Shown: in pieces, positions 6,912 through 48,984 of the stretch
Layout: every line of letters begins with the position of its first letter
How positions within the stretch are numbered: the stretch's first letter is position 1
Assembly: GCA_963775955.1 (NCBI GenBank)
Contig: CAVZKT010000002.1
Coordinates: forward strand, 228,944-292,943
DNA length: 64,000 nucleotides
From: Candidatus Moraniibacteriota bacterium
Lineage (GTDB): Bacteria > Patescibacteriota > Minisyncoccia > Moranbacterales > UBA2206
Direction of reading: 5' to 3'
Position numbers and translations under genes: made by a program
The notes under the pieces: model-generated
What the model saw: the letters and a program-made list of their open reading frames with translations, nothing else
What the model was told of the DNA's origin: nothing
Database searches by the model: none

Positions 6912-6960
6912 TTATTGACTATTTTTTTACGCATGTTACAATCCGTAATGTTATTTTAAT

Positions 6961-7037
6961 GCGCTCATAGCTCAGCCTGGTAGAGCAGTTGCCTTTTAAG
7001 CAAACGGTCGCAGGTTCGAATCCTGCTGAGCGCACCA
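6961..7037 (+). tRNA. tRNA-Lys (anticodon UUU), CCA encoded
   Basis: Hand-folded cloverleaf: acceptor GCGCTCA/TGAGCGC, D arm GCTC/GAGC, anticodon loop CTTTTAA, T arm GCAGG-TTCGAAT-CCTGC, then ACCA. Confidence 0.9.
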
Positions 7038-7095
7038 ACGAAAATCCTGCTATTGGGATTTTTTGTTTTTGTCTTTTTGTGCTACAATTTATACA

Positions 7096-8172: not shown

Positions 8173-8192
8173 TTTTTAAATTTAATTTTTTT

Positions 8193-8750
8193 ATGTACCA
8201 GGAACTAATCGAAAACAAAAAAAGCGAGATGGAAAATTCCATTGAACATTTTAAAGAAGAACTGAATCAGCTGCGCACCGGCCGGGCTTCAACGGCTTTG
8301 GTGGAAAATATTCTCGTGGACTATTATGGCGCGAAATCGCCGATGAAGCAGGTGGCGAGCATTACCATTCCGGAACCGCGCGCCATTGTCATTTCTCCGT
8401 GGGACAAGGGGACACTGGTGAATATTGAAGCTGCTGTCCGGGAATCGCAGCTGAATTTGAATCCAAATAATGACGGCAATGTAATCAGGGTCAATATTCC
8501 GCAGCTTACGGAAGACCGCCGCAAAGAACTGGTAAAAGTTCTGAACCAAAAAGCCGAGGAAGCCAGAATTGCCGTCAGGAAGCACAGGGAAGAGGTGTGG
8601 GAAGAAATCCAGGAAATGGAAAAAAGCGGAAAAATCGGCGAAGATGATAAATTTGCCGGCAAAGATGAATTGCAAAAATTGGTGGATGAATACAATTCTG
8701 TAATTGAAGACATACGCAAGAAAAAGGAAGCAGAAGTAATGACGGTTTAA
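8193..8750 (+). CDS. frr: Ribosome recycling factor
   Basis: Full-length 185-aa match in pattern to RRF (LRTGRA, PLTEERRKELVK-like PQLTEDRRKELVK, IRNIRR-like AVRKHRE). Confidence 0.9.
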   Translation: MYQELIENKKSEMENSIEHFKEELNQLRTGRASTALVENILVDYYGAKSPMKQVASITIPEPRAIVISPWDKGTLVNIEAAVRESQLNLNPNNDGNVIRVNIPQLTEDRRKELVKVLNQKAEEARIAVRKHREEVWEEIQEMEKSGKIGEDDKFAGKDELQKLVDEYNSVIEDIRKKKEAEVMTV

Positions 8751-8756
8751 TTTTTT

Positions 8757-12397: not shown

Positions 12398-12945
12398 TGA
12401 CCCAAAAAATAGCGATTTTTCTCCTGTTGTTTCTTTTGGCTATTTTCCAGATTTCTGTTTTGCCGAATTTTTTTCCGGAAAATTCCACTCCCAATATCTT
12501 GCTGGTGCTTTTGATTTTTTGGACGGCGCGCAAAGGGATGGAAAAAACCTGGAAATTGGCAATTTTAGGAGGCCTGATAAGCGACTTATTTTTGTTTATT
12601 CCCGTGGGAGTTAATATCTTTTCTTTTTTTGTCGTAATCACCCTTATTAATTATTTGGCCAAGCGATTTTTAGTTACCCACCAGGCTTGGCGTGTTGCAA
12701 TTTTATTTGTGCTGGTCGCCCTGGGGACGCTTACAAACGAACTCGTACTGGCGCTAGTTGCAAAAACATTTTTTATTTTTCAAAAAGCGGCCATAAATAT
12801 TCCGCCGCTGATCGACTGGGCGTTGGCGTATAAAATAATCAACAGCCTTATTATTTTTATGATTCTTTACTGGCCGTTTAAAAAAATAGAAGCAGTTTTT
12901 AATTTATACGGATCGCGGACTAATTCCAAATCCAGTGTTAGGTAA
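12397..12945 (+). CDS. mreD: Rod shape-determining protein MreD
   Basis: Small polytopic membrane protein. Its start overlaps the mreC stop, in the canonical mreBCD order. Confidence 0.7.
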   Translation: MTQKIAIFLLLFLLAIFQISVLPNFFPENSTPNILLVLLIFWTARKGMEKTWKLAILGGLISDLFLFIPVGVNIFSFFVVITLINYLAKRFLVTHQAWRVAILFVLVALGTLTNELVLALVAKTFFIFQKAAINIPPLIDWALAYKIINSLIIFMILYWPFKKIEAVFNLYGSRTNSKSSVR

Positions 12946-14819
12946 TATTTTTCAAAGAAAAAAAACTTTAAGGGGAGCTGAAATAGAGGATTCCATAATG
13001 ACTATCACTCAAGAGGAAAAAGCTCTTATTGAAACTCCCTACCGCAGAAAAGGGCTTGGCGGGCTCTGGTTTTTTATGGCGGCAGTCTTTGTTGTTTTGG
13101 CTTTCCGCGTATTTTATCTGGATGTCATCAAGGGAGAACATTATGCGGAACTGTCCCGGGGCAATCGTATCCGTTCGCTTGTCATCAAGGCTCCGCGCGG
13201 CAAAATTTTAGATAAATTCGGCAATGCCCTGGTATCAAATATTCCCAGTACTGATGTAATTATTATTCCCTCCGATCTTCCTGAAGAATACGAAAAACGC
13301 AAGCTTCTGGCGCAAACGCTATCCGGCGTTTTGCATATGGAGGAGGGGGATATTGAAACAGCCATTGAAAGCCAGAATCGAAAATTATTGGACCCGGTTT
13401 TACTTAAAGAAAATATTTCCCAGGATGAAGCCCTTATTTTAGCGGAAAAAGCCAAAAATCTTCCCGGAATTTCAGTGGAAAACACTGCCATCCGCAAATA
13501 TGAGAATAGCGTCATATTTTCCCCAATCATCGGCTATGACGGAAAAATTACCCGCGAGGAAATAACAAAAAATCCAGGCTACTCAATGACAGACTATATC
13601 GGTAAAACCGGGTTGGAAAAATATCATGAAGAAGAACTTAAGGGAAAAAATGGCGCCAGTCAAGTTGAGGTTGATTCGCTGGGTAATATTAAAAAAAACT
13701 TGGGAAGCATAAGCCCGCAGGCCGGGGATGATTTAATCCTGAATATCGACGAAGGATTGCAAAAAAAACTGTATGACAGCATGGCGGGCATTTTAGAACA
13801 AACTGGGACTAAAACAGCGGCGGCCGTAGCGATTGATCCGCGAAACGGCGGAGTATTGGCGATGGCCAGCTTGCCGAGTTATGACAATAATTTATTTGCC
13901 CAGGGAATTTCCAACGCGGATTACCAAAAAATTGTAAATGACAAAAACCTCCCGCTTTTTAACCGCGTTATTGCGGGCGAATATCCGCCTGGTTCAACTT
14001 TTAAGCTGGCAGTGGCGGCGGCCGCGCTTACTGAAGGCACGATAACTCCAGACACGAAAGTAAATGACAGCAGTGGAGCTATTAATATCGGTTCCTGGCG
14101 GTTTGGCGACTGGAAAACTCATGGTGTGGTGGATGTGCGAAAGGCGATTGCTGAAAGCTGTGATGTATTTTTTTACAGCGTCGGCGGAGGCTACGGAAAT
14201 ATTCCAGGGATTAGGAATGGATAGAATGAAAAAATATGCAAATCTTTTTGGGTTGGGCAGCCCGACCGGCATAGATCTTCCGGGAGAATCAAGCGGATTT
14301 ATTCCCAGCGAACAATGGAAGCTCGATAAGCTGGGAGAAAAATGGTATATCGGCGATTCCTATCACTGCGCCATCGGCCAGGGCTTTATCACGGTTACTC
14401 CCTTGCAGCTGGTAAATTATATCGCTTCCATTGCCAACGGCGGGATTTTATACGAACCGCATGTTGTCAGTCAAATCAAAAGAAGCGACGGCAGTTTGGA
14501 AACTATAAGTCCAAAAATAATCCGCCAGAATTTTATTTCCAAGAGCGTTATAAATGTTGTGCGCGAAGGCATGCGCCGGACAGTTACCGATGGAACGGCG
14601 CAGACGCTCAAAGATTTGCCGGTAGCAGTGGCGGGAAAAACCGGAACGGCTGAGTTTGGAGGAGAAGGAAAAACCCATGGCTGGTTTGTTTCTTTTGCGC
14701 CCTATGATAATCCGGAAATTGCCATAGCGGTCCTGGTGGAGGGCGGAGGCGAAGGGCACTCAACCGCCGTGCCGATTACGAAAGATGTTTTAAGCTGGTA
14801 TTTTTCTCAACGTAAATAG
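12935..14819 (+). CDS. mrdA: Penicillin-binding protein 2 (elongasome transpeptidase), frame broken near 14204
   Basis: Track ORFs 12935-14224 and 14064-14819 are the N- and C-terminal parts of one PBP2 (STFK active site as PGSTFKLAVA, SCDVFFY, KTGTAE). Dropping one G in CCAGGGATT restores ...GNIPGLGMDRMKKYANLFGLG. Confidence 0.85.
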
Positions 14820-15633: not shown

Positions 15634-17083
15634 ATGAGAGAGGATATTTTAAAAACTAAACTGGAAAAATTGGAAAATATAAAAAAAGCCGGGCTGGATC
15701 CGTATCCGGAAAAAACAGAACGGTCTTTTACTAATGCAGAGGCCCTAGAGCAGTTTAATAAACTTACTGCGAAAGAAATTGCGCTGGTCGGGCGGGTAAA
15801 ATCATTCCGGCCGATGGGCAATGCTGCTTTCGCTCATATAGAAGACGGCACTGGGAAAATCCAAATTTTTTTGGGCAAAAAAAACATGCCCGAAACTGAA
15901 TATAAATTATTTGTTAAAAATGTTGAAGTTGGCGATTTTGTGGAGGCCCGCGGAAAACTTTTCAAGACCAAACAGGATGAAAAAACTCTGGAAGTATCCG
16001 GCTGGAAAATGCTGTCCAAAAACATCCGGCCGATTCCAACCGAATATTTCGGTCTCAAGGATACTGAAGAACTTTTGCGCAAGCGCTATCTGGATTTGAT
16101 GATGAATAAAGAGACGCGCGAAATTTTTAGAAAGAAAAATGTTTTCTGGCAGACTGTTCGTAATTTTCTCGCAGAAGAGGGATTTTTGGAAGTCCAGACT
16201 CCGGTCCTGGAGCATATTCCGGGCGGAGCGGAAGCAGAACCTTTTGTAACGCACCATAATGCGCTGGATCAGGACTTTTATATGCGCATTTCGTTGGAGT
16301 TACCGCTTAAAAGGCTATTGGTCGGCGGTTATGAAAAAGTTTTTGAAATCGGGAGGTTATTTCGCAATGAAGGCATGGATCGCGAACACCTGCAGGAATA
16401 TGACGATGTGGAATTTTATGCGGCTTACTGGGATATGCAAAAAGGCATGGAATTTTCCGAGCAAATGTTTAAAAAAATTGTAAAGCAAGTACTTGGAAAC
16501 GAAGTTTCCAAGTATGAAGACAACGAAATTGATTGGAGCAAAAAATTTCCGATCGTTGATTATTTTACGGAATTTAAAAAAGCAACCGGATTGGATTTGG
16601 AATAAAGATATTTCTGTGGAGGAATTGAAGAAAAAAGCCGATAAGCTTGGAATTAAATACGAAAAGTCCTATGGTAAAGGCAGGATGATTGACGCGCTTT
16701 ATAAAAAAACCGTGCGTCAGAAGATTATCCAGCCCTGCTTTTTAGTCGGGCATCCGATTGAGGTTTCGCCCCTGGCTAAGAAAGATCCTAAAAATCCGAA
16801 AAAAGTTTTGCGTTTTCAAATTGTGGCGGGAGGAAGCGAGCTTTGCAACGCTTTCGCGGAACTCAATGATCCCGTTGATCAGAAAAACAGATTTTTAGAG
16901 CAGATGAAAATGCGCGAGGCGGGCGATACGGAAGCGCAAAGGATGGATGAGGATTTTGTGGAAGCTTTGGAATACGGCCTGCCGCCGGCCTTCGGTTTCG
17001 GCATGAGCGAACGCTTTTTCGCCTTGCTGATGAACAAATCCGTCCGCGAAACCGTGATTTTTCCGACGGTGAGGACAAAATAG
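15634..17083 (+). CDS. lysS: Lysine--tRNA ligase (class II), frame broken near 16598
   Basis: Track ORFs 15634-16605 and 16493-17083 together form a complete LysRS: an OB-fold N-domain, motif 2 (FRNEG) and motif 3 (GFGMSERF). Removing one G in TTGGAATAAAG gives ...TGLDLNKDISVEEL. Confidence 0.85.
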
Positions 17084-25555: not shown

Positions 25556-26127
25556 ATTCCGAAGCTCGCAAGAGCGAAGGATGGCTAGTACAGAAATGTA
25601 CAAAAACCCTCCTACGTCCGCCTCGGCGGACTTCGGAAGGGTAAAGAGTCTATTCAAACAAAGAATTTATTTTCTTTAAATAAGGTTTATTGATCCGTCT
25701 TCTCCGCCTTCGGCGGATTCGGCGGGATCTAATAAATCTATCGAAAAAAATTATATTTTTTTCGAGATTTATTGAGAGTTTGATCCTAGCTCAGGATGAA
25801 CGCTGGCGGCGTGGATAAGGCATGCAAGTCGAGAGGGTTTAGACCCTCGGCAAACGGGTTAGTAATACATAGGAACTTCCCTGAAGTCGTGAATAATCCG
25901 GAGAAATCCGGAATAATACACGATATGCTCTACGGAGTAAAGATTTATCGCTTCAGGAGGGCCTGTGTCCTATCAGCTTGTTGGTAGTGTAAAGGACTAC
26001 CAAGGCTATGACGGGTAGGGGGTGTGAGAGCACGGCCCCCAACATTGGGACTGAGACACTGCCCAAACTCCTACGGGAGGCTGCAGTCGAGAATATTCGT
26101 CAATGGGCGAAAGCCTGATGGAGCGAC

Positions 26128-26166
<39 letters not shown>

Positions 26167-26858
26167 TTTCTGAGGGAAGAATTTCGTGACGGTACCGCAG
26201 GAATAAGAGGTTACTAACTCTGTGCCAGCAGTAGCGGTAATACAGAGACCTCAAGCGTTATCCGGATTTATTGGGCGTAAAGAGCATGTAGGCGGATATA
26301 TTAGTCAGATGTCAAATCTTCGAGCTCAACTCGAAAACTGCATTTGAAACGGTATGTCTAGAGAGAGTGAGAGATCGATGGAACATATGGTGTAGCAGTG
26401 AAATGCGTTGATATCATATGGAACACCAAAGGCGAAGGCATTCGATTGGCACTCTTCTGACGCTGAGATGCGAAAGCGTGGGTAGCGAATGGGATTAGAT
26501 ACCCCAGTAGTCCACGCCGTAAACGATGCATACTAGGTATTAGGAGAATCGACCCTCCTAGTGTCGTAGCTAACGCGTTAAGTATGCCGCCTGGGAAGTA
26601 CGAGCGCAAGCTTAAAACTCAAAGGAATAGACGGGGATCCGCACAAGTGGTGGAGCATGTGGTTTAATTCGACGGTAAGCGAGAAACCTCACCAGGGCTT
26701 GAAACTTAGCTGCATTGTGCAGAAATGCACAAGCCTTCGAGGGTGCTAAGCAGGCGCTGCACGGTTGTCGTCAGCTCGTGTCGTAAGATGTTCTGTTAAG
26801 TCAGGAAACGAGCGCAACCCCTATCGTGTGTTACATTGTGTCACACGAGACTGCCCAG

Positions 26859-27048
26859 AACTTTGCACAAGAGTGCAAAGTAAATTCCAAATTACAAATC
26901 ACAAATCCCAAACAAATTCAAAATTCTAAAATACAAATTTCAAAACTTTTAAAAAATTGTTTTGGACATTTGAATTTTGGTCATTGGTGCTTGTTTGGAA
27001 TTTGGTGCTTAGGATTTGGTGCTTACTTTGTCACTCGTGGACAAAGTT
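26859..27048 (+). other. 190-nt AT-rich expansion replacing the helix-40 loop of the 16S
   Basis: Sits between ACTGCCCAG and CTGGGAGGAAGGTGGGG, where E. coli has CCAGTGATAAACTGG. It begins and ends with similar hairpins (ACTTTGCAC/GTGCAAAGT and CTTTGTC/GACAAAG). The centre folds as a long A/T helix. Confidence 0.8.
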
Positions 27049-27279
27049 CTGGGAGGAAGGTGGGGATGACGTCAAATCAGCGTGGCCCTTTGACGCCCTG
27101 GGCAACACACGTGCTACAATGGTAAGAACAAAGGGTTGCCAAGCCGTAAGGCGGAGCTAATCCCAAAAATCTGATCTCAGTTCGGATTGAGGTCTGCAAC
27201 TCGACCTCATGAAGCCGGAATCACTAGTAATCGTAGATCAGAATGCTACGGTGAATACGTTCTCGGATCTTGTACTCAC

Positions 27280-28151
27280 AATAAAAGCGCTGGGCAGTTG
27301 TAAATTCTAAGGAGTTTAAATCTCCTCTCCCGATTTCGTCATCGGGATGTAGCTGAAAGGTAGTCGTTATCCGCGAGGATAATGGTGAAGGATCTGGAAG
27401 CAAAAAATAGTCCGACAAAATCCGCCAGTTGGCGGAGCGCGCATCGACCTTCGGAAGGGTGGTGAGCGAAGGGAAGACGCAAGAATAAGCGCAGTCGGAA
27501 TGTTTGGAAAAGAGTTTATAATGACCCCAGGAGATCTTATGCCGTTCTGATTATGTGTTATAATATAATCAGGTAATGAAACTTACGCGGCGTAAGAAGT
27601 CAGCTGAATCGTAGTATCCCGAGTTCTCGGGAGAAGGATTCACTCAGTGCATATGGAATTAAATCCAAATTATATCGTTGGTCTGGTTGATGGAGAAGGA
27701 AGTTTTACAGCTTATGTAAAAAATCCGGATTCAACCAAAAAAGTTCAAAGGCGGACAAAAGTTGAGCCAAGGTTTTTTCTGAAACTTATCGAGAAAGATA
27801 AAAAAATTCTTGATGAGCTTAAAAAATTCTTCGGATGCGGCAATGTTTATTTTCAAAAAGATAAGCGCGCCAATCATCAAAATTGTTATCGTTATGAAGT
27901 AGCCAACCGCAGTGATTTGGAAAAAATAATAGTTCCATTTTTCAAAAGGAATTCTTTGCAGTTACGCTCAAAGAAAAGTGACTTTGAAATGTTTTGTAAG
28001 ATTCTCAAGATGGTTCAAAAAAAGGAACATCTGAAAGAATCGGGATTAAGAAAAATATATAATCTCAAGCAAAAGATGCATTAGAGCTCGTCGTGTGCGG
28101 GAAATCCGCAGGCACGATGGGAACATCAATTCGTAGTTTTACGAAAATATT
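27280..28151 (+). mobile_element. 872-nt intervening sequence in the 16S (E. coli ~1397-1400 region) carrying a homing endonuclease gene
   Basis: Interrupts the universal GYACACACCGCCCGT: TTGTACTCAC | insertion | CGCCCGTCACACC. Contains structured GC-rich RNA flanks and the LAGLIDADG ORF. Confidence 0.85.
27653..28084 (+). CDS. LAGLIDADG homing endonuclease (single-motif type)
   Basis: NPNYIVGLVDGEGSF is the LAGLIDADG motif. 143-145 aa, the size of the homodimeric I-CreI-like class. Located inside the rRNA insertion. Confidence 0.85.
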   Translation: MELNPNYIVGLVDGEGSFTAYVKNPDSTKKVQRRTKVEPRFFLKLIEKDKKILDELKKFFGCGNVYFQKDKRANHQNCYRYEVANRSDLEKIIVPFFKRNSLQLRSKKSDFEMFCKILKMVQKKEHLKESGLRKIYNLKQKMH

Positions 28152-38206: not shown

Positions 38207-38602
38207 ATGGATATTTATATCGAACTTGAAACTGGCAAGAAGACGAAGTCAGAGATTGAAAAAATAATGCTCGATGTTGCTGAAAACTTGGAAGAACTAT
38301 TTACGCTTTACTATGTGATTTGTGAAGAAAGTAATTTCGCTGAAGCAGTTGTTGAAAGAATTTCAGAACAAATTGCGCCGATTGAAAAATGGGTTGAAAT
38401 TTACGAACGGATTCCGAGAAAAAAAGAATTCTTTATAATTAAAGAAATCTTTTTCAAGAAGATGGCAGGTTCTCCTGGAGAAATAAGAAAAGCCGGGTGG
38501 GTAAAATCTCATCCGGCTTTTAAATTTTCACATCAAAAATTAAGAAAAAGTTCATTTGGTATCAATACTTGCGATATTTCTAGTTCCCGACTGAATGTCT
38601 AA
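38207..38602 (+). CDS. Hypothetical protein
   Basis: 131-aa ORF. Its 3' end overlaps the convergent amidotransferase gene by about 50 nt. Confidence 0.4.
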   Translation: MDIYIELETGKKTKSEIEKIMLDVAENLEELFTLYYVICEESNFAEAVVERISEQIAPIEKWVEIYERIPRKKEFFIIKEIFFKKMAGSPGEIRKAGWVKSHPAFKFSHQKLRKSSFGINTCDISSSRLNV

Positions 38603-39358
38603 TCTTAATAATTCGTGGTTATTGAATTGTTTCCAACGGACACCTTTTGGAGCTATTTTTTCTGATGAAACTATATCAGAATTTGAATTTTCGGTGTGTC
38701 CTATATAAAGCGTATAGTACTCAAGCATTTTTTTTCTTTTAACTAACTCGCTTTTTTCATTTATCTCACGAAGTGCCCACGCATTTTTACCGTCTGTCAA
38801 TAAAAAATTTAATGCAGTGTAATCAAAATTTTTCTTAACAAAAGAAACTGCCTTCAGGATACCTTTTTGAATGGAATTTGATGTTTGTTTCTTATCTTTA
38901 ATGTTATTAATACATTGTAAAATGTAAACAAAGAACCTTTCTGAATCAGTTTCCCCCTTAATTAGATTTTCAAATTCATCAGTTAAGGGAAGTCGCTTAC
39001 TGTTAAAAATAGTGCCATTTTGACAAAAAGAAAAATTTTTTAAAACAAAAGGATGAGAGTTGAAAAATTTATTTTTGCCTGTCGACGCTTTACGTAAATG
39101 ACCAATAACAATATTTGAATCTAAATCCCTTATTTCTTCAATGATTTTTTTATAAGCTTTACTTTTTATTGCGCTAGAGCCCTCCTTTCTAAAAAGAATT
39201 ATTCTTCTGCCCTTATAAACAACCACACCCCAACCATCCTCGTGTCCAGACTGCGATCCTTTAGGAACACTTCCTTTTTTAGAAAGTAATCGAAAATCAG
39301 CCAAAACCTCAGAGTTGACTTTTTTATTAAAATTATTTACCAATATCATTCTACACAT
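38552..39358 (-). CDS. Class II (Ntn-type, YafJ/EgtC-like) glutamine amidotransferase
   Basis: N-terminal MCR nucleophile (Cys2), HEDGWGVV, and GHLRKAST...NSHPF. Confidence 0.7.
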   Translation of the reverse strand: MCRMILVNNFNKKVNSEVLADFRLLSKKGSVPKGSQSGHEDGWGVVVYKGRRIILFRKEGSSAIKSKAYKKIIEEIRDLDSNIVIGHLRKASTGKNKFFNSHPFVLKNFSFCQNGTIFNSKRLPLTDEFENLIKGETDSERFFVYILQCINNIKDKKQTSNSIQKGILKAVSFVKKNFDYTALNFLLTDGKNAWALREINEKSELVKRKKMLEYYTLYIGHTENSNSDIVSSEKIAPKGVRWKQFNNHELLRLDIQSGTRNIASIDTK

Positions 39359-39430
39359 ATGTTAAAATTATCATAAAATAAAAATTTTTAAAAATTGTGG
39401 GAAGCGGAGTTTTATCCGCTTCCCACTCAA

Positions 39431-40192
39431 TCATGCTTCCAAGGCTTCTTTGCAAAGAGAATGACATCTTTCTGCCCACATCACTACTTCATCCAAATTC
39501 TCAGTTGAGCCGAACATTCTGAACTCGATTGTGCCATGAACAGAGATGCGCACAATGTGCCAACAACTTCTGGGATCATTTACAAAGTTTTTTTCAGTCG
39601 CCTCACGATAGAAATCTGTGAAATTTTTATAACGAGGCGGGTAAAAATCGGGAGCTACTACTCTGTAGATATCCAGGCGCCTGCCGTTGGATTTGTCACC
39701 AAGTTTGCAGAGCAAATCAACTTTGTCTATGACCGAGTTGTACACCTTTATAGCAGTTTCATGGTCGGGCATACCAATGTGAATATGAATACCCGTTACC
39801 TGACATGCTGCAAGCAATACTTCTTTTGACATTTTTTCAGTTATACGCTGATATCTTCCGCTGGGATCGGGATATACGTCGAGGGGCATATCATCAGGTG
39901 CTACTTCAAGAAACAGACGTTCAAAACCAATTTCACTTTCAGCTTTTTTAATTTCCTCCTCATTCTTCAATAATTCGATTTTTACGTTTTTCACTTCGGT
40001 CGGGCCTATCCTATCTTCAAGTTGACAAGCAGAAAGTTCAAAACCGAACCGTCCATTTATTCCTATCCTTGTGAGAACCTCTGGTGAAATAGGAGATATC
40101 TTTCCTTTTTTTACCAAAAAGCATTCTCGTTCGACACCGACCAGTAAGGCACCGTCTTTTCTGAAATTAAACTTCCTGAGAAAGTCTTGCAT
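39431..40192 (-). CDS. Glutamate-cysteine-ligase family 2 (YbdK/EgtA-like) carboxylate-amine ligase
   Basis: GVERECFLV, FELSACQLE and TGIHIHIGMPD blocks. GGAGG RBS 8 nt upstream. Confidence 0.65.
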   Translation of the reverse strand: MQDFLRKFNFRKDGALLVGVERECFLVKKGKISPISPEVLTRIGINGRFGFELSACQLEDRIGPTEVKNVKIELLKNEEEIKKAESEIGFERLFLEVAPDDMPLDVYPDPSGRYQRITEKMSKEVLLAACQVTGIHIHIGMPDHETAIKVYNSVIDKVDLLCKLGDKSNGRRLDIYRVVAPDFYPPRYKNFTDFYREATEKNFVNDPRSCWHIVRISVHGTIEFRMFGSTENLDEVVMWAERCHSLCKEALEA

Positions 40193-40687: not shown

Positions 40688-41437
40688 ATGATTTGGGCAC
40701 CATATCTTGGAGCGCGCATTCCGAATATGAAGGGCGTGGGAAAAATCTACAAGGCATTTTCAAATGGTAATTTTACATATTCATCTCACGCTGCTATTTT
40801 TGTTGGTTTTACGCCAGGCAATCCGCAATTGAGAGAAACATTTATAAATCCAAAATTCGGAAAAATATTTAAAATAAAAACAGACGGAGATTATATTGGC
40901 CCCGGCATTGATCATGTAGTACTGGATGGTAAAAATATAATCGATGGTTTTAAGCGTAAGGGGTATGTGACAATCGGAACAGCTGCAATGGATTGGTTTG
41001 ATCCAGAATCAGAATCTGGACAGACATTGATGGCTGACTTTGATCATTTTCTATATTCCAAAACTGATTTTTTAAGGCAAAAAGAATATGTTATTCAGAA
41101 AATTACTGAATGCAACGATAATCCAATATTTGTATTTATGAATATAGGTGAAACGCATGTTCCTTATTATTTTAAAGGGGCACCCTGGTCTAAGCACGAC
41201 AATCCCTGTGTGCCTTTTGGAAGCGATAATTCGCTTGAAAAGAGTAGTTTCAGACAGGGGAAATGCCTCGAGTTTATTGATAATAATATAAAAGAAATAC
41301 TGGATTTGTTTAAGGATGATAATATAATAATTTGTTCTGATCATGGTGATTGCTGGGGTGAAGATGGATTGTGGGAGCACGCAATTCATCATGAAAAAAC
41401 CGTAACTGTTCCGTTGCTCTTTAAGCTGGAGAAATAA
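40688..41437 (+). CDS. Alkaline-phosphatase-superfamily (sulfatase/phosphodiesterase-like) protein, apparently lacking the usual N-terminal metal/nucleophile block
   Basis: C-terminal SDHGDCWGEDGLWEHAIHH resembles the SDHG..GE.G...H motif of the superfamily. The frame is open for about 20 codons upstream with no start codon. Confidence 0.45.
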   Translation: MIWAPYLGARIPNMKGVGKIYKAFSNGNFTYSSHAAIFVGFTPGNPQLRETFINPKFGKIFKIKTDGDYIGPGIDHVVLDGKNIIDGFKRKGYVTIGTAAMDWFDPESESGQTLMADFDHFLYSKTDFLRQKEYVIQKITECNDNPIFVFMNIGETHVPYYFKGAPWSKHDNPCVPFGSDNSLEKSSFRQGKCLEFIDNNIKEILDLFKDDNIIICSDHGDCWGEDGLWEHAIHHEKTVTVPLLFKLEK

Positions 41438-41647
41438 GCATTATTATAGTAATAAACACTTCGTCAATGGCTGATTTGCTCCCTTGACTTTCGATTTTTT
41501 AAGTGTATAATTAACAAGATTTACGCATATTAGCTATGTGGAAGTCAGATGTTCTTTGACAAAAATCCTGTTTTTGACTTATGGCTAATAATGCTATATA
41601 GTTGAAATATGTTTGAAAACACTATTATGCAAAATAAAGGGGGTAAT

Positions 41648-43517
41648 ATGGAAATGAAGGAAAAAAAACAAGACGAGTTTGAGAAGTACAAGCTGGAGGT
41701 GGCTGAATCCGTAAGCGCGGTTCAGAAAAAAATCAGCGAGGAAAAGGATAGTCGCGAACTTGTTGACTTTGATAGCTATCCATCAGAAAAGCTAACGGCG
41801 GAGGTAGCTGAGGTTGTGAGAGAGTCTATCGGTGTCCAAGATGTTGGAGAAATAGGACTGTCAGTTCCACCAGCTCACATATCCGGCGATTTTGCTTTGG
41901 AGGTTTTTGATTTAGCAAAAAAGCTGGGGGAAAAACCAAATGTGCTGGCAAAGAAAATTGCTGATAGCATAAATGGGCGAGAAATGGAGTTGGTCAAGGA
42001 TGCTTCTGTGGCAGGAGCTTTTGTAAATGTGGAAACACGCAAGGAGACCCTCTACCGAGATATTCTTGCAAAAGTTCTTAAGCTCGGAGAGCGCTATGGC
42101 GAAAGTGATATCAATGCTGGCAAAGTGGCAGTCATTGATTATTCGGCTCCGAACATAGCAAAGCCTATTGGAGTCGGTCACTTAAGATCTACAATCATTG
42201 GGCAAGCTCTTGCTAATCTTTACCATGAAACTGGCTACAGCGTTATCAAGGACAATCATCTTGGTGATTGGGGCACGCAATTTGGATCACTCATTTACGC
42301 CTATAAAGAATGGGGTGATGAGAAGAAAATAGCGGAGAACCCAATTGGAGAGCTTAAGGATCTCTATGTTAAGTTTCATGCATTTTCTAAAGAGCACCCA
42401 GAGGTTAAAGATAGTGCTCGCGAGTTGTTTACGCGACTCGAGAAAAAGGATCCCGAGCTGGTAGCTCTTTGGAAGCGTTTTAGGGATTTAAGTCTCAAAG
42501 ACTTTGATCGTGTCTACAAGCAATTGGGAATCGAATTCGACACTAATATCGGTGAGAGTTATTTCACTGAACAAGCTGACAAACTGGTGGGTGAGTGTAT
42601 GACAAAGGGTTTGTGCAGAAAGGATGAAGCGTCGGAGGCTGTTGTTGTTGACCAAATGGGAGAAATTCCGTCTTTTCTATTAAGAAAGCAGGATGATTCG
42701 AGTCTGTATTTGTCGAGGGATTTAGCCACGCTTCAGTTTAGGGTCAAAGCCTTCAAGCCCGATGCTATTTTGTATGTGGTGGGCAATGAGCAGGATTTAA
42801 ACTTCAAACAACTGTTTGAATTTAGTAAGCGCGCCGAATATCTTCCAGACGGCGTGGAAACGAAACACATCGGATTTGGAATGGTCTTGAGAGACGGCAA
42901 GAAGATGTCTACCAGAAAGGGGACACTCATTGAGTTAGAAGACCTGATTGCGCAGTCTGTAGAAAAATCAAAGGAGATATTGCTCCAAAAAAATCCAGAC
43001 GCTGATCCGCAAGAATTGGAAAAAGTGGCTGAGATTGTTGGTGTCGGAGCAATCATTTACAATGATTTGCGCCAGTCGAGAGTAAAGAATATCTCTTTCG
43101 ATTGGGACAGGATGCTTGATTTGGAAGGTGGAAGCGCGGTTTATTCTCCAGTACTCATATGTTCGAATCAATTCAATTCTCAGAAAGCTAACTGAGACTT
43201 ATGGCGAAATTGATTTGAGCACTTTGGAGAAAGGAGAGATTTCTTTCACGAGCAAGAGTGAATTTGATCTTGCGAAGAAGTTAATGATGTTTCCTGCAAT
43301 CGTTGTTAAGTCGCAGGAAACTGATTCTCCTCATCATCTCTGTGTGTATTTGGAGGAATTGGCTCAGTTTTTCAACAGCTTCTACAATGAAGTATCGCTT
43401 CTCAGGACCAAAGATGCAAAGCTTCGTAATTCAAGAGTGGCTTTAAGCAAAGGTGTGGCCTTGGTGATCAAAAAAGGCCTATCTTTACTGAGTATCAAGG
43501 TTCCGGAGAAGATGTAG
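41648..43517 (+). CDS. argS: Arginine--tRNA ligase, frame broken near 43141-43146
   Basis: Class I: SAPNIAKPIGVGHLRSTIIG (HIGH variant) and KMSTRKG (KMSKS). The C-terminal DALR domain continues in track ORF 43116-43517. Removing one T in GTTTATTCTCC gives GGSAVYLQYSYVRINSIL. ATG 41648 follows AAAGGGGG. Confidence 0.85.
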
Positions 43518-43755: not shown

Positions 43756-43848
43756 ATGGAAAATATTTACGTTTCCCTAGATGAAGCGCGGGAAGAAATA
43801 AAAAAGAGGTGGAATGATGTTGAATTGAGAAAGAGGGTTGAAAAATGA
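43756..43848 (+). pseudogene. Truncated copy of the 48208-48984 gene (30 codons)
   Basis: MENIYVSLDEAREEIKKRWNDVELRKRVEK*. About 85 nt are near-identical at the DNA level to 48218-48300. Confidence 0.7.
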
Positions 43849-43986
43849 AATAAAGGACCTATTACTGTTAACTATACAGGCGCTTGACATTTTTTAGAAA
43901 TCTGCTAGTATACCATGAACACCAAGTCAATATGACTAGTGTCAGGCAAGTAACTTGAAAATAATGTTCTAAAAGGAGGATTTGTT

Positions 43987-45120
43987 ATGAAAAACAGGCT
44001 AATTTCCAAAGAGAGGTTAGCTAAGGCACTAGCCATAAAAGATCTCTCGGATCCAGCGAATGGAGTTCATGCGATTAACTTAGTAGTCAGTAAAATTTTT
44101 GACTATCTAACAAAAAAAGCAGGGTGGCCAAAACCGGAAATAAGAAGAGCGAGTCCTATTTCATCAGTCAAAAATGATTTTGATCGGCTGTATTTCCCAC
44201 CAGATAATCTTACTCGTTTGCCTCGCTACACGCGGTATCTTGATGAAAAAACCATATTGAGGACGCACACAACCGCCATGATACCTAATATACTCATAGA
44301 GATACGAGAAAAGGGCTTGATGGATTTCTCTGTTCTCTGTCCTGGCATATGTTATCGCAGGGATGTGGTTGACAGTAGGCATACGGGAGAAGCCTCATCA
44401 AATGGATATTTGGAGGATTAAAAAAGGCACACCAAGGCTTGAACGCAAAGCCCTCATTGATTTGATTGAGTTGGTGCTGGAAGCTGTAATTCCAGGAGCA
44501 AAATATAGGGCCAACGAGGTAAATCATCCCTACACAATAAATGGACTTGAGGTTGAGGTCCTTGTGAAGGGATATTGGCTTGAATTGCTGGAATGTGGCG
44601 AAGCGCACCCAAGGCTCCTCTCTGAGGCTGGACTTGATCCGAAAGAATACTCCGGACTGGCGATGGGTGTTGGACTTGACCGATCGGCCATGTTGTTGAA
44701 GGACATTGAGGACATAAGAATACTGCGTTCGGAAGATCCTCGTATCAAGCAACAGATGACCAATCTTAGTCATTATAAGGCAGTTTCAAAATATCCGCCC
44801 GTACGCCAAGATCTCTCCGTTTCAGTTTTGCAAGAAACAAATGAGGAAGATGTATGCGAAATAATCAAAGATGCTCTTGGTGACAATTCAGATGTTGTTG
44901 AGGAAATTACCATAATGTCGGAACAAATTACGACCGTCTTCCTGCTAAAGCAATTGAAAGGTTGGGCATAAGACCAGGACAAAAAAACATGCTGATAAGA
45001 GTTATTTTAAGATCGCATGAAAGATCCCTCACTCATAAGGAGGCCAATGAAATGAGGGACAATATTTATAGAACAATTAACCAGAGCGGTACCGAAGGTT
45101 ATCTTGCTGGCATTAAATAA
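43987..45120 (+). CDS. Single-chain PheS-like class IIc aaRS paralogue with C-terminal FDX-ACB-like domain, two frame breaks
   Basis: ILRTHTTAMIP, motif 2-like YRRDVVDSRHTGEPHQMDIW (after repair) and motif 3-like GLAMGVGLDRSAML. The C-terminus KYPPVRQDLSVSV...YDRLPAKAIERLGIRPGQKNMLIRVILRSHERSLTHKEANEMRDNIY resembles the ferredoxin-fold anticodon-binding domain. Breaks lie near 44388-44393 and 44924-44928. Strong RBS AAAGGAGG. Confidence 0.7.
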
Positions 45121-45139: not shown

Positions 45140-45175
45140 AAGCCATTCTTTCAAAGGAATGGCTTATTTTTTTTC
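45140..45175 (+). terminator. Rho-independent terminator
   Basis: AAGCCATTC ... GAATGGCTT followed by a long T-run. Confidence 0.75.
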
Positions 45176-45191
45176 TACAAAAATGAACACA

Positions 45192-45220
45192 TTGACATAA
45201 CCACCAATTTAGCATAGTAT
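45192..45220 (+). promoter_or_regulatory. Promoter (TTGACA-17-TAGTAT) for the peptide/rSAM operon
   Basis: Perfect -35 with a 17-nt spacer, 35 nt upstream of the small ORF. Confidence 0.55.
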
Positions 45221-45254: not shown

Positions 45255-45371
45255 ATGGAAGAAAAAACAACCCTGAAAACCGTCCAAGAGGAATGGATGG
45301 GAGGCACAAAAGAAAATGGTCAGGAGCAACAAGAAGTTGTGGTCAGAGAATGTTCTTGCTCATTTGATTAG
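45255..45371 (+). CDS. Candidate RiPP precursor peptide (38 aa, not in ORF track)
   Basis: Hand translation: MEEKTTLKTVQEEWMGGTKENGQEQQEVVVRECSCSFD*. Lies between a promoter and a radical SAM/SPASM gene. No obvious RBS. Confidence 0.45.
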   Translation: MEEKTTLKTVQEEWMGGTKENGQEQQEVVVRECSCSFD

Positions 45372-45439
45372 CCCCAAAAAACCTAAATATAAGATAAAAA
45401 AGAAATTTTGTAATCGAAACTGTTTTTGTGTTTGAAAAA

Positions 45440-46498
45440 ATGAAAACATCACCAAAAAAATCTGAATTGCACTATGCTTTATGGGAGGTTACTCAAAAAT
45501 GCAATTTGCGATGTATACATTGTAGGGCGGATGCCTCTCCCGAAAAAGAAGAAGGGAAATTAATAGAGGGTAGGGATGCTTTCAGATTAATAGACCAGCT
45601 TAGCGAAATGGGTTGTCCAACCCTAGCGATTACCGGAGGAGAGCCGCTGCTAAGAAAGGATTTGGTTGAAATTGTAAGATATGCAACTTCGAAGAATATA
45701 CGAACAAGAATACAAAGCAATGCCCAACTTTTAACCGATGATATCGCAAGCCGACTAAAGGAGGCCGGGCTTTATTCCTACGGAGTTGGGATGGATGGGT
45801 CAACGCCTGAAATAAATGACAAAATAAGAAATAAAAGCGGAGCTTTTGACAAAGCTATTTCTGCCATCAAATTATTAAAATCAAAGGGGCTTAAAGTGCA
45901 TATTGAATTTACACTTACAAGGTTTAATTTGCATGATTTGCATAATACTCTTAATCTGCTGGAAAAATTGGGAGTCGATACCTTTTTAGCTAGAGCTGCC
46001 ATATTTACTGGTAGAGCCATGGCTAATAATGAAGCATTTAGATTATCGAAACTTGAATATAGAAAATTTCTAGAAGAGATTAGCAGGGAAAGACGGGAAA
46101 GAAAAATTACTCTAAACTGCCAGGATCCACTATATCACCTAGTTGATGACTCTATTACAAAAAAACTTAAAAATTATGGTGATATTTATTCTGGATGCGT
46201 ACTAAGCGGATGTACTGCAGGACTCAATATGGTTCATATTCATTCAAATGGAAATATTGGCATATGTACTTTTCTGCAGAACATTATTTTGGGAAATATA
46301 TTCGAAAAGCCTCTTCAAAAAATTTGGAACGAAAGACTGGATGTCCCGGAAGTAAGAAGATTGGTTAAAAGAGAGTACGAAGGAAAATGCAAATCTTGTT
46401 CTGACAGATACATCTGTGGTGGATGCAGGGCTAGATCTCTTTGTATCTCAAATAATTTATTTGGGCATGATCCTTACTGCTGGAAAAATGAAAAATAA
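45440..46498 (+). CDS. Radical SAM enzyme with C-terminal SPASM-type auxiliary cluster domain
   Basis: CNLRCIHC (CxxxCxxC), AITGGEPLL, and C-terminal Cys clusters SGCTAG...GICTF and CKSCSDRYICGGCRARS. The alternative start is GTG 45428. Confidence 0.8.
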   Translation: MKTSPKKSELHYALWEVTQKCNLRCIHCRADASPEKEEGKLIEGRDAFRLIDQLSEMGCPTLAITGGEPLLRKDLVEIVRYATSKNIRTRIQSNAQLLTDDIASRLKEAGLYSYGVGMDGSTPEINDKIRNKSGAFDKAISAIKLLKSKGLKVHIEFTLTRFNLHDLHNTLNLLEKLGVDTFLARAAIFTGRAMANNEAFRLSKLEYRKFLEEISRERRERKITLNCQDPLYHLVDDSITKKLKNYGDIYSGCVLSGCTAGLNMVHIHSNGNIGICTFLQNIILGNIFEKPLQKIWNERLDVPEVRRLVKREYEGKCKSCSDRYICGGCRARSLCISNNLFGHDPYCWKNEK

Positions 46499-46946
46499 TC
46501 TTTCTTTAAATAAAGACATTTCCATAAGAAAGTGTCAAAAAGACGACCATGCTTTTATCCATGATCTTTCCAAAAAAAACATGGAGAAATATGTAAGAAA
46601 GTATTGGGGTTCGTGGAATAGCAAAAAGTTTAAAGAAAAATTTAATATAAATAACATATCTATTGTTCAATTTGAGGGTAATTCAGTCGGTTTTTTTGAT
46701 TTGGAATTTAAAAAAAATTATTTATATTTGCACAATATCCAACTGGATAAATCAATTCAGGGTAAAGGAGTGGGAAGCTATTTGATGAAAATAATAGAGG
46801 AGAACTCAAAAAATAATAAATTTAATAAAATTAGGCTAGAGGTTTTTAAAGATAGCCCTGCAAAAAATTTTTATCTAAGTTTACATTACAAAATTACTGA
46901 AGATAACGGCACTTCAGTTACGATGGAAAAACAAATTTATACTTAA
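46488..46946 (+). CDS. GNAT family N-acetyltransferase
   Basis: IQGKGVGSYLMKIIE (QxxGxG) and NFYLSLHY. ATG 46488 overlaps the rSAM stop by 11 nt. Confidence 0.7.
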   Translation: MKNNLSLNKDISIRKCQKDDHAFIHDLSKKNMEKYVRKYWGSWNSKKFKEKFNINNISIVQFEGNSVGFFDLEFKKNYLYLHNIQLDKSIQGKGVGSYLMKIIEENSKNNKFNKIRLEVFKDSPAKNFYLSLHYKITEDNGTSVTMEKQIYT

Positions 46947-47001: not shown

Positions 47002-48021
47002 TCAGAATGAAAAAAGTTTTTTGGCCGTGTTATAGAAAACATTTTCCATTACTGTATATCTTTTCTTCTGAAACAAGTCTTTTACAGCTCCCACTAAAGC
47101 TTTCATGGCTTGCCAATGTAGATGAATGCATCCTTTTGCCAGGCTGCCATACTTTTTGTGTTCATCTGGATCAACCCAGTGATATAGGTACTCCGTTATT
47201 AGCCTTGTTCCCAGATGGGGGTTTGTGTACAGCCGCGCCCGTATCAGATTGCATGGCTCATCTGATCCAAAAACGATTCTGGCTGGATCAAAAAATCTTA
47301 AAGCTGCCACCACGACATTATAATCAGTGGCTAGAGAAGTATCCATATAAACCTGCTCATGTCGAGATAATTCCGCGTAAATCTTTTCCAGTAAACTAGA
47401 GTGTCCAGTTGGAGAACCTAAATGGGCAAAAATAACTTTTAGCTTGGGAAAATCTTTGAGCATTTTCCAAAAATCACCTCCCATATCTATTGGTTTGGGT
47501 GGATGAAAAATAATTGGAATCCCCAGTATCTGGGCATGTTCAAGAATTTCTGGCTTGAAAAAGTCGTAGATCTTTTCTGCCGGTGGGACAGTGCTGAAGT
47601 TGTACATTTTAAGAGCGACAACACGTTCATCGGTTAGTATGTCTGTGGTATAAATAATATCATCTCCTATGCCACAAACAGCCACTTTATCCAAACAACT
47701 ACTATTTTCAAGTAAATACCTATTTGCTTTCCGGAAATCAACTCCCTGGATGGGAATCGAGAACCTTAATGCGGTTATCTCATGTCCAGGATATAAATAT
47801 CCTTGCAGATTTCTAGATTGTTCAAGACTAAACTCTGAAAATGTTGAAGCCGGATGATTCAAGATAGCATCCTTGAAGTCGGCATGCTCTGAAAGAAAAC
47901 AGTGAGCATGACAATCGATAATTTTCTCTGGCAATAATTTATGGATCTCCATTAGCTTTTTTTCCTTCTCAGTAAAAGCCAATGCATACTGCAGGCAGTT
48001 GCAATTGTTTATAGTTCTCAT
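47002..48021 (-). CDS. Amidohydrolase-2 (TIM-barrel metal-dependent hydrolase) family protein
   Basis: IIDCHAHCF near the N-terminus, FAHLG, and DEP near the C-terminus. Convergent with the GNAT gene. Confidence 0.55.
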   Translation of the reverse strand: MRTINNCNCLQYALAFTEKEKKLMEIHKLLPEKIIDCHAHCFLSEHADFKDAILNHPASTFSEFSLEQSRNLQGYLYPGHEITALRFSIPIQGVDFRKANRYLLENSSCLDKVAVCGIGDDIIYTTDILTDERVVALKMYNFSTVPPAEKIYDFFKPEILEHAQILGIPIIFHPPKPIDMGGDFWKMLKDFPKLKVIFAHLGSPTGHSSLLEKIYAELSRHEQVYMDTSLATDYNVVVAALRFFDPARIVFGSDEPCNLIRARLYTNPHLGTRLITEYLYHWVDPDEHKKYGSLAKGCIHLHWQAMKALVGAVKDLFQKKRYTVMENVFYNTAKKLFSF

Positions 48022-48207
48022 TTTATCAGTACCTCCAAAAGATAGGTGCTACAAATGCGATAATCATCCAGTTTCGTGTTAACATCCGGCACCTCCTTAT
48101 TTTTAAGTTTTTAAAAAACTGCTTCATTAACGATCTCCAACCCTCGATATATTAGTGTACATCTAATTCCGCTTTTGTCAAATGTTTTTTTGTGCTATAA
48201 TAATTTC

Positions 48208-48984
48208 ATGGAAAAGGACAATATTTATGTTTCGCTTGATGAAGCGCGGGAAGAAATAAAAAAAAGGTGGAATGATGTTGAATTGAGAAAGAAGGTTGAA
48301 GCGGAATTGGGAAACAAGTTCATGCCGAGTTTTAAAAATGAACCAAGGGGTGTGACTTTTCGGCAGCTTTGTTCGCCAGACAATGGATTTACTTTTTTTT
48401 ACCAATGTGTAAAATATATTGGGTTAGAACCGCTGATTATGGAATATCATGATGATATATTCACGCACCTCAATGAAGATAAAAAGGGATTGGGTCGGTT
48501 GCGTGTAATACTAGAAGATGGTACAGCGGCTATGGTTGATATTATAGACTTTCATGCAAATGAAAAAAAGAAATTAAGTGGGTGTGTCCTGAAAACTGGT
48601 GAAAAATTAATCAATTTTCATCACGATCTTATTAAAATGCTAAAATATCCTGTTGATTCATTAGAAAATTCAAAATGGTTTAAAGAGATTGGCAAAGCAT
48701 CAGATTATTACTACTATTTGTTACTCCATTTTATTGCCCATGGAGTGTTATGTGAACTTTTTTTTGATGTTGATGAGAGTAATATTGATTTTGCTAACAA
48801 TATCATACTTCCATCAATTGAAAAAATTTATAATAAATTTGGGCTTAAGCCATTAATTATAAGGCAATATCCGCAAAATCAAAGCGAAGCAGAGGATTTT
48901 TATTGGTGGTGTTATCCTCCCAATATAAATAAATTTATTATTAATTTTGCAAAAAATAATAAAATAGATTTTAAAAAAATTTAA
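48208..48984 (+). CDS. Conserved hypothetical protein, paralogue of 34766-35554; apparently leaderless
   Basis: MEKDNIYVSLDEAREEIKKRWNDVELRKKVEAELG. The ATG lies 6 nt after the TGTGCTATAAT -10 element. Confidence 0.6.
   Translation: MEKDNIYVSLDEAREEIKKRWNDVELRKKVEAELGNKFMPSFKNEPRGVTFRQLCSPDNGFTFFYQCVKYIGLEPLIMEYHDDIFTHLNEDKKGLGRLRVILEDGTAAMVDIIDFHANEKKKLSGCVLKTGEKLINFHHDLIKMLKYPVDSLENSKWFKEIGKASDYYYYLLLHFIAHGVLCELFFDVDESNIDFANNIILPSIEKIYNKFGLKPLIIRQYPQNQSEAEDFYWWCYPPNINKFIINFAKNNKIDFKKI

Follow-up and report, generated by a model that had tools for sequence, protein, structure and literature searches.

A 64,000-nucleotide stretch of contig CAVZKT010000002.1 (positions 228,944 to 292,943), from assembly GCA_963775955.1 of a Candidatus Moraniibacteriota bacterium, encodes a relative of phenylalanyl-tRNA synthetase (PheRS). 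The gene occupies positions 43987-45120 (+) of this stretch, hereafter the window, and specifies a protein of 377 aa once two single-base indels are repaired. By its sequence, the product is a genuine member of NCBIfam family NF051887, the 'PheS-related mystery ligase SrmL', and a single-chain class IIc synthetase paralogue. Downstream lie genes for a 38-aa peptide, a radical S-adenosylmethionine (rSAM) enzyme, a GNAT-fold protein and an amidohydrolase, and a direct repeat stands at either end of the block.

The SrmL gene, its frame breaks and its family

Three open reading frames (ORFs) on one strand (43987-44421, 44363-44971 and 44962-45120) are pieces of a single gene. A tblastn search with the repaired protein places residues 1-135 at 43987-44391, residues 114-313 at 44333-44926 (frame 2) and residues 314-377 at 44926-45117, and the gene closes with a TAA stop codon at 45118-45120. 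The first coding piece on the ORF and tblastn evidence (43987..44391, +, residues 1-135) carries the N-terminal helices, LRTHTT and the first half of motif 2. It runs into frame break 1, an extra base at 44392 (+) between E135 and P136 (gga gaa g cct, read as G134 E135 / P136), where intact relatives have GEPHQMD. The second piece (44393..44926, +, residues 136-313) contains EPHQMDIW, HPYTINGLE, ECGE, motif 3 (SGLAMGVGLDR) and the start of the FDX-ACB domain. At frame break 2 (44925..44928, +) a run of A is short by one (A4 to A3) and codon N314 is partly lost; with the missing A restored to the run at 44925-44927, the DNA reads caa[a]at tac, or Q313 N314 Y315, and relatives have SE(T/Q)NYDRLP at this site. 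The third piece (44929..45120, +) supplies residues 315-377 and the TAA. The repair is backed by an uninterrupted 377-aa relative with 90% identity (P0001) and by hundreds of relatives of 370-380 aa. Tblastn and a reading of the DNA located the two frame breaks that the original prediction had placed within one gene, and the motifs it had picked out (LRTHTT, YRRDVVDSRHTGEPHQMDIW and GLAMGVGLDRS) are all found in SrmL.

The flanking signals lie on the same strand as the gene. A Shine-Dalgarno sequence read from the DNA (AAGGAGG, 43973..43979) stands 7 nt ahead of the SrmL ATG, and a terminator-like feature (45140..45175), a hairpin at 45140-45165 followed by a T-run, separates SrmL from the peptide gene. 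By consensus match only, a sigma-70-like promoter with a TG extension (TTGACA-16-TAGTAT, 10/12) falls at 43884..43911 and a second promoter-like sequence (TTGACA-17-TAGTAT) at 45192..45220, ahead of the peptide gene. The gene had been credited with its own promoter, ribosome-binding site and terminator; AAGGAGG and the terminator-like hairpin agree with the last two as consensus matches, and promoter-like matches in the region are no more numerous than chance would give, with 6 found against 5.2 expected.

The SrmL frame breaks are most likely indel errors of the deposited assembly and not gene decay. That the breaks belong to the deposited assembly follows from the 360,084-bp NCBI/ENA contig, on which a 144-aa N-terminal SrmL fragment is a called protein. 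Five genes of the window, four of them of essential type, carry at least seven frame breaks between them. Arginyl-tRNA synthetase (ArgRS) has its catalytic part at 41609-43195 and its DALR part at 43116-43517, a penicillin-binding protein (PBP) transpeptidase is split into 12935-14224 and 14064-14819, and a class II tRNA-synt_2 enzyme into 15634-16605 and 16493-17083, while seryl-tRNA synthetase (SerRS) lies in three pieces between 22020 and 23152. Assembly error is preferred because housekeeping genes show the same kind of break and SrmL retains all its family-invariant residues. A true pseudogene, with both frameshifts real and SrmL being lost in the host organism, is very improbable. The two breaks do lie within 1.1 kb, both stand in the deposited assembly and break 1 is outside any long homopolymer, but break 2 is a homopolymer length change of one base, SrmL contains no in-frame stops, its invariant residues survive, and the other four broken genes are of essential type (ArgRS, SerRS, the class II synthetase and the PBP). 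Taken by themselves, the split housekeeping genes of the window would fit an indel-prone assembly or a genome that is gathering frameshifts.

The repaired protein scores 435.3 bits against NF051887 (cut-off 300, E 1.6e-130, model positions 1-348/349), and it has the architecture and signature of that family, differing only by the two indels in the deposited DNA. It falls under the cut-offs of both PheRS models, with 145.9 bits against the mitochondrial-type pheS_mito (TIGR00469, cut-off 258.35) and 105.2 bits against bacterial pheS (TIGR00468, cut-off 237.45). The sepS hidden Markov model gave 12.7 bits against a cut-off of 380.65, and PylS gave no match. A Pfam scan and an AlphaFold2 (AF2) model identify a class II PheS-type catalytic core (tRNA-synt_2d, residues 26-256, 2.1e-34; 44062..44755, +). 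Pfam, AF2 and alignment then define a divergent ferredoxin-fold FDX-ACB domain (residues 267-366; 44786..45084, +), which scores 38.8 bits against a gathering score of 31.1 and contains a family-specific inserted helix. The Phe_tRNA-synt_N coiled coil (PF02912) found no match in SrmL in the Pfam scan, in keeping with its predicted absence.

The AF2 model, built on 24 homologues, has a mean predicted confidence (pLDDT) of 86.9. Its best Protein Data Bank matches in Foldseek are structures of human mitochondrial PheRS (3CMQ/5MGH; E ~2e-27, TM 0.68-0.69, full length, ~405 aligned columns), with bacterial PheS cores ranking behind. Pfam, the NF051887 score and the AF2/Foldseek comparison together confirm the originally predicted single-chain PheS-like core fused to FDX-ACB, and the domain scan found both tRNA-synt_2d and FDX-ACB. 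The one-chain arrangement had been taken for a mitochondrial one; thousands of bacterial proteins have it. The SrmL family is already named and curated by NCBI, the name is carried by actinomycete homologues in RefSeq/NCBI and UniRef, and the architecture is not unique to the window genome. Literature searches, extended to monomeric and PheRS-like paralogues, turned up no paper on the SrmL family.

Mitochondrial PheRS (FARS2; 3CMQ, 3TUP) likewise joins a PheS-type core and a C-terminal FDX-ACB domain in one chain, without an editing domain, and it has the YRRD..D..H motif-2 loop in common with SrmL. Identity is nevertheless only ~22-24%, SrmL lacks a ~40-residue insertion of the human enzyme, and the FPFT/GWAFG pocket of the mitochondrial enzyme becomes HPYT/GLAxG. 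Bacterial PheRS, a heterotetramer of PheS and PheT, has a homologous core (26-31% identity) with motifs 2 and 3, and its PheT B8 domain is homologous to FDX-ACB, whereas SrmL is without the N-terminal coiled coil, the beta subunit and the editing domain, and its Phe pocket differs. EpmA/PoxA, the carrier-protein ligases, and the pyrrolysyl- and phosphoseryl-tRNA synthetases (PylRS, SepRS) all have class II cores in which adenylate chemistry is kept and the amino acid, the acceptor or both are changed; within class IIc, PylRS and SepRS are closest to PheRS. SrmL has an anticodon-binding-type domain, which EpmA lacks, and has no adjacent dedicated tRNA, which pylS has.

Active site and anticodon-binding domain

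Active-site conservation was assessed over 87-90 SrmL sequences from at least six phyla. The signature is essentially invariant and comprises LRTHT, PGxCYRRD..H.GEPHQxDxW, HPYT.NGLE and SGLAxGxGLDR. The window protein is identical to the consensus at H94, R124, R125, D126, H132, E135, P136, Q138 and D140, and again at W142, H180, Y182, T183, E202, G204, L224, A225 and R232. Retained from PheS and FARS2 are LRTH(T/S), the motif-2 residue R124, the motif-3 residue R232, Q138, an acidic residue at 140 and A225, the equivalent of Thermus Ala314. Because the residues that by homology hold ATP and the alpha-amino and carboxyl groups are kept, we infer that SrmL still forms an aminoacyl-adenylate from ATP and an alpha-amino acid. 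A conserved Cys pair or metal site at C122/C203 was considered and dropped, as these residues vary across phyla.

The pocket for the amino-acid side chain is altered throughout the family. Phe258 and Phe260 of bacterial PheRS form an edge-to-face aromatic network that recognises the Phe ring (PMC3275996). In all SrmLs HPYT replaces FPFT, and the Phe258/Phe260 pair is lost: Phe258 becomes His180 and Phe260 becomes Tyr182 (Thermus numbering), both family-invariant. Further invariant substitutions turn the first Gly of the GAGMV strand (Gly282) into Glu202, (F/W)313 into Leu224, Glu220 into Asp140, a Leu into Trp142, and the motif-2 Phe before HQ into Pro136. Thermus numbers beyond Phe258, Phe260, Val261 and Ala314 are our own mapping from an alignment to PheS and the Thermus sequence. 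With pocket residues replaced by the invariant His180, Tyr182, Glu202, Leu224 and Asp140, the amino acid used by SrmL is probably not plain phenylalanine.

The anticodon-binding domain has diverged as well. Human mitochondrial PheRS reads G34 via Asp364, Phe366, Ser375 and Arg414, and the D364G substitution abolishes activity (PMC7540514). In a MAFFT alignment, Asp364 corresponds to Ser311 in SrmLs, Phe366 to Thr/Gln313 and Ser375 to an invariant Asn334, and an invariant Tyr315 stands two residues past position 313. Arg414 falls outside the aligned human segment; by eye it corresponds to Tyr372 in the Patescibacteria SrmLs, and this C-terminal position is variable in other phyla. The inserted helix, LPxxAxxRLGI at about residues 318-328, lies between two FDX-ACB strands beside the G34-reading face. 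When the SrmL FDX-ACB domain is used alone, a sequence search no longer retrieves PheRS structures. The acceptor is probably a tRNA-type RNA, bound by FDX-ACB but without canonical G34 reading of tRNAPhe. A dedicated, pylT-like tRNA was sought as a partner and rejected, with none in 56 loci; the sole tRNA of the window is a tRNA-Lys 37 kb away.

Relatives and genomic partners of SrmL

SrmL is widespread. The window protein retrieves 868 matches at E<=1e-10, a Virgisporangium homologue retrieves 4,880 at E<=1e-30, and a scan of species genomes yielded 177 stretches encoding a relative. Holders occur among Patescibacteria, cyanobacteria, actinomycetes, proteobacteria, myxobacteria and Gemmatimonadota. 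They include heterocystous and other cyanobacteria (Scytonema, Calothrix, Fischerella, Chlorogloeopsis PCC 6912, Nostoc), Micromonosporaceae and other actinomycetes, Rhizobium tropici, Arenibaculum, Myxococcus and Polyangiaceae, and SrmLs of different phyla share 42-64% identity. In free-living cyanobacteria and actinomycetes with 5-9-Mb genomes, SrmL is a stand-alone extra gene without conserved neighbours. Some Patescibacteria have two SrmL copies, one of which is degenerate in locus L011.

The original prediction left open whether the gene encodes an unusual housekeeping PheRS or a paralogue with another role. It had noted that no pheT is adjacent, and indeed neither pheS, pheT nor any other PheRS-type sequence occurs elsewhere in the 64-kb window. 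In loci L004-6, whose SrmL is 73% identical (P0013), a canonical pheS (347 aa, with the coiled coil) and a pheT lie 7 kb from SrmL, and in L007 a canonical pheS adjoins SrmL. Because relatives hold canonical pheS/pheT on the same contig, and because SrmL scores above its own cut-off and under both PheRS cut-offs, the paralogue is favoured and the housekeeping option disfavoured. The canonical PheT of L004 (17354-19333, -) is itself unusual, at only 659 aa, with ~110 residues after the catalytic-like domain and no Pfam match to tRNA_bind (B2) or FDX-ACB (B8) even at E<=0.1.

A second group of single-chain enzymes in Patescibacteria resembles FARS2 more closely. These proteins of 380-395 aa (L019:17952-19094, -; L175:5296-6483, -) keep an FPYT/GWAFG pocket and the D-x-Y/S/R tetrad, and their FDX-ACB domain scores 91 bits. 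They fall just under the cut-offs of pheS_mito, pheS and SrmL (256 vs 300 bits). A neighbour-joining tree over 196 core columns, for which no bootstrap support was computed, places them as sister to a monophyletic SrmL. They resemble SrmL in architecture, length and phylum, and sometimes share its locus, but identity is only 30-36%, and it is the FARS2-like enzymes that keep the canonical Phe pocket and tetrad. They may be real bacterial monomeric PheRSs.

Downstream of the window SrmL, a gene at 45255..45371 (+) encodes a conserved 38-aa peptide, MEEKTTLKTVQEEWMGGTKENGQEQQEVVVRECSCSFD, a candidate rSAM substrate whose homologues stand directly upstream of an rSAM gene. The gene that follows encodes a radical SAM/SPASM enzyme (45428..46498, +; Pfam Radical_SAM and SPASM). 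A domain scan assigns the next two, a GNAT acetyltransferase-fold protein that overlaps the rSAM gene (46416..46946, +) and an Amidohydro_2-family protein on the opposite strand (47002..48021, -). By gene layout, the peptide and the rSAM/SPASM enzyme form a module like those for ribosomally synthesised and post-translationally modified peptides (RiPPs), in which modification of the peptide is putative. Peptide homologues lie directly upstream of the rSAM gene in L008, L009, L010, L018, L021, L057, L086/87, L169, L171 and L175. The 12 copies, always upstream of rSAM, share the C-terminal consensus TVQ(Q/E)EWMG...(V/I)V(R/K)EC(S/A)CxF(D/N), in which the penultimate Phe is invariant (12/12). In Patescibacteria the linked peptide and rSAM genes are often joined by GNAT and Amidohydro_2 genes, the Amidohydro_2 gene being present in L009, L018, L057, L171 and the P0001 contig.

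The rSAM enzymes beside SrmL reach no curated NCBIfam cut-off, the window enzyme among them; the latter belongs to a small family of 49 proteins at E<=1e-60. Many contigs of this family equal SrmL-bearing contigs in size, which suggests that they are the same contigs. Natural rSAM-GNAT fusions of ~500 aa (P0248, P0267, P0268) support a putative functional link between the window rSAM and GNAT genes. A metagenome scan with the rSAM profile found only two close orthologues, whose contigs were too short for SrmL to be seen; generic rSAM/SPASM genes of ~30% identity made up the remaining 78 loci.

The proposed tie between SrmL and the peptide/rSAM genes holds up and recurs within Patescibacteria, with the pair adjoining SrmL in the window, the P0001 contig, L008, L009, L010, L018, L021, L057 and L171, nine loci in all. 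These loci display at least four gene orders or orientations; the P0001 contig, from the closest relative, has the same order as the window. Their SrmLs are 52-90% identical and spread over both main Patescibacteria SrmL clades. As a general feature of the family, however, the tie fails. Most SrmLs, in cyanobacteria, actinomycetes and other groups, have no rSAM neighbour, so the RiPP-like module cannot be required for the core function of the family, and the link to the pathway may be confined to certain lineages. The part in tRNA-dependent peptide modification that the original prediction left open is putative.

A repeat search and alignment revealed an 85-nt direct repeat around the block. 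The left copy (43758..43842, +) duplicates the 5' end of ORF 48175-48984 in truncated form, and the right copy (48216..48300, +) lies inside the 5' end of that ORF, which encodes a 269-aa protein with no family match. The copies are 93% identical, with a spacing of 4458 nt, and bracket exactly the SrmL, peptide, rSAM, GNAT and amidohydrolase genes. Its presence at both ends suggests that the block was inserted, rearranged or moved as a unit.

In every informative locus, the module stands beside some PheRS-family gene. In L175 the peptide/rSAM pair is divergent from the FARS2-like enzyme, and the contig ends directly past the rSAM gene. Such adjacency may reflect function or ancestry, the latter being possible because SrmL itself is often near PheRS genes (L004, L007, L019 and the P0001 contig). 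The L169/L170 arrangement (5807-9704) has features of its own: pheS starts 46 nt after the rSAM gene on the same strand and is followed by pheT, and this pheS is short (257 aa), lacks the coiled coil and contains a Cys-rich insertion, CTICKGKGCPVCKETG.

Other neighbours of SrmL vary with lineage. An all-against-all clustering of ORFs over 85 loci found no universal SrmL neighbour beyond lineage-specific synteny. A conserved protein of 82-89 aa, here called c13, abuts or overlaps the SrmL start in L004-6, L010, L013, L016, L017, L019 and L020 (for example L004:9735-10004, L010:3826-4074, L013:7180-7428 and L019:9735-10004). These nine loci represent seven distinct contexts, L004-6 being copies of one. 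The protein carries the motifs KARCSC, SSSPSAAYEMIF and KAGRWLAVLRRDY and has no Pfam, NCBIfam or PADLOC match. A convergent lysyl-tRNA synthetase (LysRS) gene follows SrmL in some Patescibacteria loci, of class I in L001-3, where it shares a transcription unit with two rSAM genes, and of a divergent class II-like type in eight (L013, L014, L016, L017, L019, L020, L027 and L052). In L001 (7876-11590, -), the class I LysRS gene overlaps two rSAM genes in one operon. The class II-like gene is followed by two dCTP-deaminase-like genes, a methyltransferase, a LysA-like decarboxylase and an S66 LD-carboxypeptidase-like gene. A likeness of this LysRS-like/dCTP-deaminase-like context to microcin C accessory genes was set aside, since all the genes could equally be housekeeping.

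The window SrmL adjoins neither c13 nor LysRS and has the ArgRS gene upstream. In a search for anti-phage defence, PADLOC gave no match for SrmL, the GNAT protein, the amidohydrolase or c13, and the rSAM enzyme showed only generic viperin-level similarity. Upstream of ArgRS, at 38552-40192 (-) and 40688-41437 (+), lies a set of amide-bond enzymes: a class II glutamine-amidotransferase-like (EgtC-like) protein, a GCS2/amidoligase-like carboxylate-amine ligase and a sulfatase-family hydrolase. The window also contains a complete bacterial 16S rRNA gene (25768-27331).

Possible functions of SrmL

The account we favour, although we hold it to be about evenly balanced, is that SrmL is an aminoacyl-adenylate-forming single-chain PheRS paralogue with a non-Phe substrate and a remodelled RNA acceptor, serving the peptide/rSAM pathway in this lineage. 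The enzyme would be catalytically competent and would make an aminoacyl-adenylate. Its amino-acid pocket and the reading head of its anticodon domain would both have been re-specified, and it would probably still be RNA-directed. In part of the Patescibacteria it would have been recruited to, or would travel with, an rSAM-modified peptide pathway, and in the window lineage its product or activity would serve the pathway encoded next to it.

Several points weigh against this account. The pocket changes alone do not exclude Phe, given that human cytosolic PheRS has Asn at position 258 and is still Phe-specific (PMC3275996). The proposed substrate is deduced from sequence, and residues were matched through alignments and a single AF2 model instead of a ligand-bound structure. 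The motif-2 Phe of class II enzymes stacks on adenine, and Pro136 in its place is unusual for an enzyme of this class that uses ATP. No dedicated tRNA gene lies near SrmL across the 56 loci. Most SrmL genes, in cyanobacteria and actinomycetes, have no rSAM gene, peptide gene or conserved neighbour, and the peptide/rSAM pair of L169/170 leads into canonical pheS-pheT and lacks an SrmL gene within 6 kb.

Among the alternatives, a role for SrmL as the only PheRS of the cell, a housekeeping enzyme typical of its lineage in a reduced Patescibacteria genome, is extremely improbable. Streamlined synthetases, single-chain FARS2-like ones included, do occur in Patescibacteria, and the window is without pheS or pheT, but the window spans 64 kb and its contig measures at least 360 kb. 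Canonical pheS/pheT accompany SrmL in the relative whose SrmL is 73% identical, SrmL is an extra gene in free-living bacteria with large genomes, and the window protein combines altered specificity determinants with scores under the cut-offs of both PheRS models. Unlikely, too, is an atypical but true PheRS isoenzyme that charges tRNAPhe with Phe, an inhibitor-insensitive or stress copy that here would give self-protection against a PheRS-directed product of the peptide, rSAM, GNAT and amidohydrolase genes. Resistant synthetase copies occur in antibiotic gene clusters, and microcin C systems have a detoxifying acetylase, a parallel to the GNAT protein. Such a role would fit the linkage of a second synthetase gene to a biosynthetic cluster in nine loci, with canonical PheST elsewhere in relatives. 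It would also fit the PheRS-family gene beside the module in each informative locus, mostly SrmL but canonical pheS-pheT in L169/170 and a FARS2-like gene in L175. The promoter-like site and terminator of SrmL, its patchy phylum distribution, which resembles the horizontal spread of a resistance gene, and the invariant penultimate Phe of the peptide point the same way. However, the L175 contig breaks off directly past the rSAM gene and an SrmL might follow, and the L169 and L175 adjacencies may be ancestry, with SrmL so often near PheRS genes. SrmL has a much wider distribution than the rSAM family with its 49 members, and its specificity determinants differ from those of both PheS and FARS2. 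Several Phe-pocket residues are now polar or acidic and invariant across phyla, more change than is usual in known resistant copies. All SrmLs have lost the equivalent of Asp364, a residue whose loss is by itself enough to inactivate human mitochondrial PheRS (PMC7540514).

A further alternative keeps the adenylate chemistry and changes the acceptor from RNA to a peptide or small protein, for which the 38-aa peptide and c13 are candidates, with FDX-ACB acting as a protein- or peptide-binding module; we regard this as distinctly unlikely. Parallels exist in EpmA/PoxA, which acts on elongation factor P (EF-P), and in the SerRS-derived amino acid:carrier-protein ligases. The loss of the G34-reading residues, the helix inserted in FDX-ACB and the lack of a nearby dedicated tRNA gene are all consistent with such an acceptor, as are the tight linkage to the peptide and the position of c13 at the SrmL start in nine loci (seven distinct contexts). 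An R-x-C-[SA]-C-like motif occurs in both the peptide (RECSC) and c13 (ARCSC), although it is short and variable. Set against these points, FDX-ACB still scores above the Pfam gathering threshold, and in its motif-2 loop SrmL is similar to mitochondrial PheRS. Moreover, the peptide and c13 are absent beside SrmL in cyanobacteria, actinomycetes and proteobacteria, whose SrmL active site is identical.

A bolder reading is a tentative and, taken whole, unlikely scheme in which a functional synthetase-type SrmL with a new pair of substrates, the 38-aa peptide and the rSAM/SPASM enzyme act together in Patescibacteria. The acidified pocket (His180, Tyr182, Glu202, Asp140) would activate a polar or cationic amino acid, possibly aromatic or peptide-derived. 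This amino acid would be loaded onto an RNA or peptide acceptor read by the remodelled FDX-ACB domain. The outcome might be a tRNA- or aminoacyl-dependent peptide pathway, or a PheRS-directed peptide to which its partner SrmL would be insensitive.

What is new here is the set of substitutions at specificity determinants, the FARS2-like bacterial sister group, the recurrent partnership with peptide and rSAM genes, and the repeat-bounded block. Experimental handles are offered by the peptide and rSAM/SPASM partners, by the listed substitutions and by the FARS2-like enzymes, a natural control from the same phylum that keeps canonical PheRS determinants. The same enzymes are relevant to how the mitochondrial single-chain PheRS architecture arose, as the design exists in free-living bacterial lineages. 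SrmL itself is strongly conserved and its altered active site is invariant, yet NCBI still names it a 'mystery ligase'. Synthetase paralogues with changed partners have repeatedly revealed new biology, from pyrrolysine to EF-P modification and the carrier-protein ligases.

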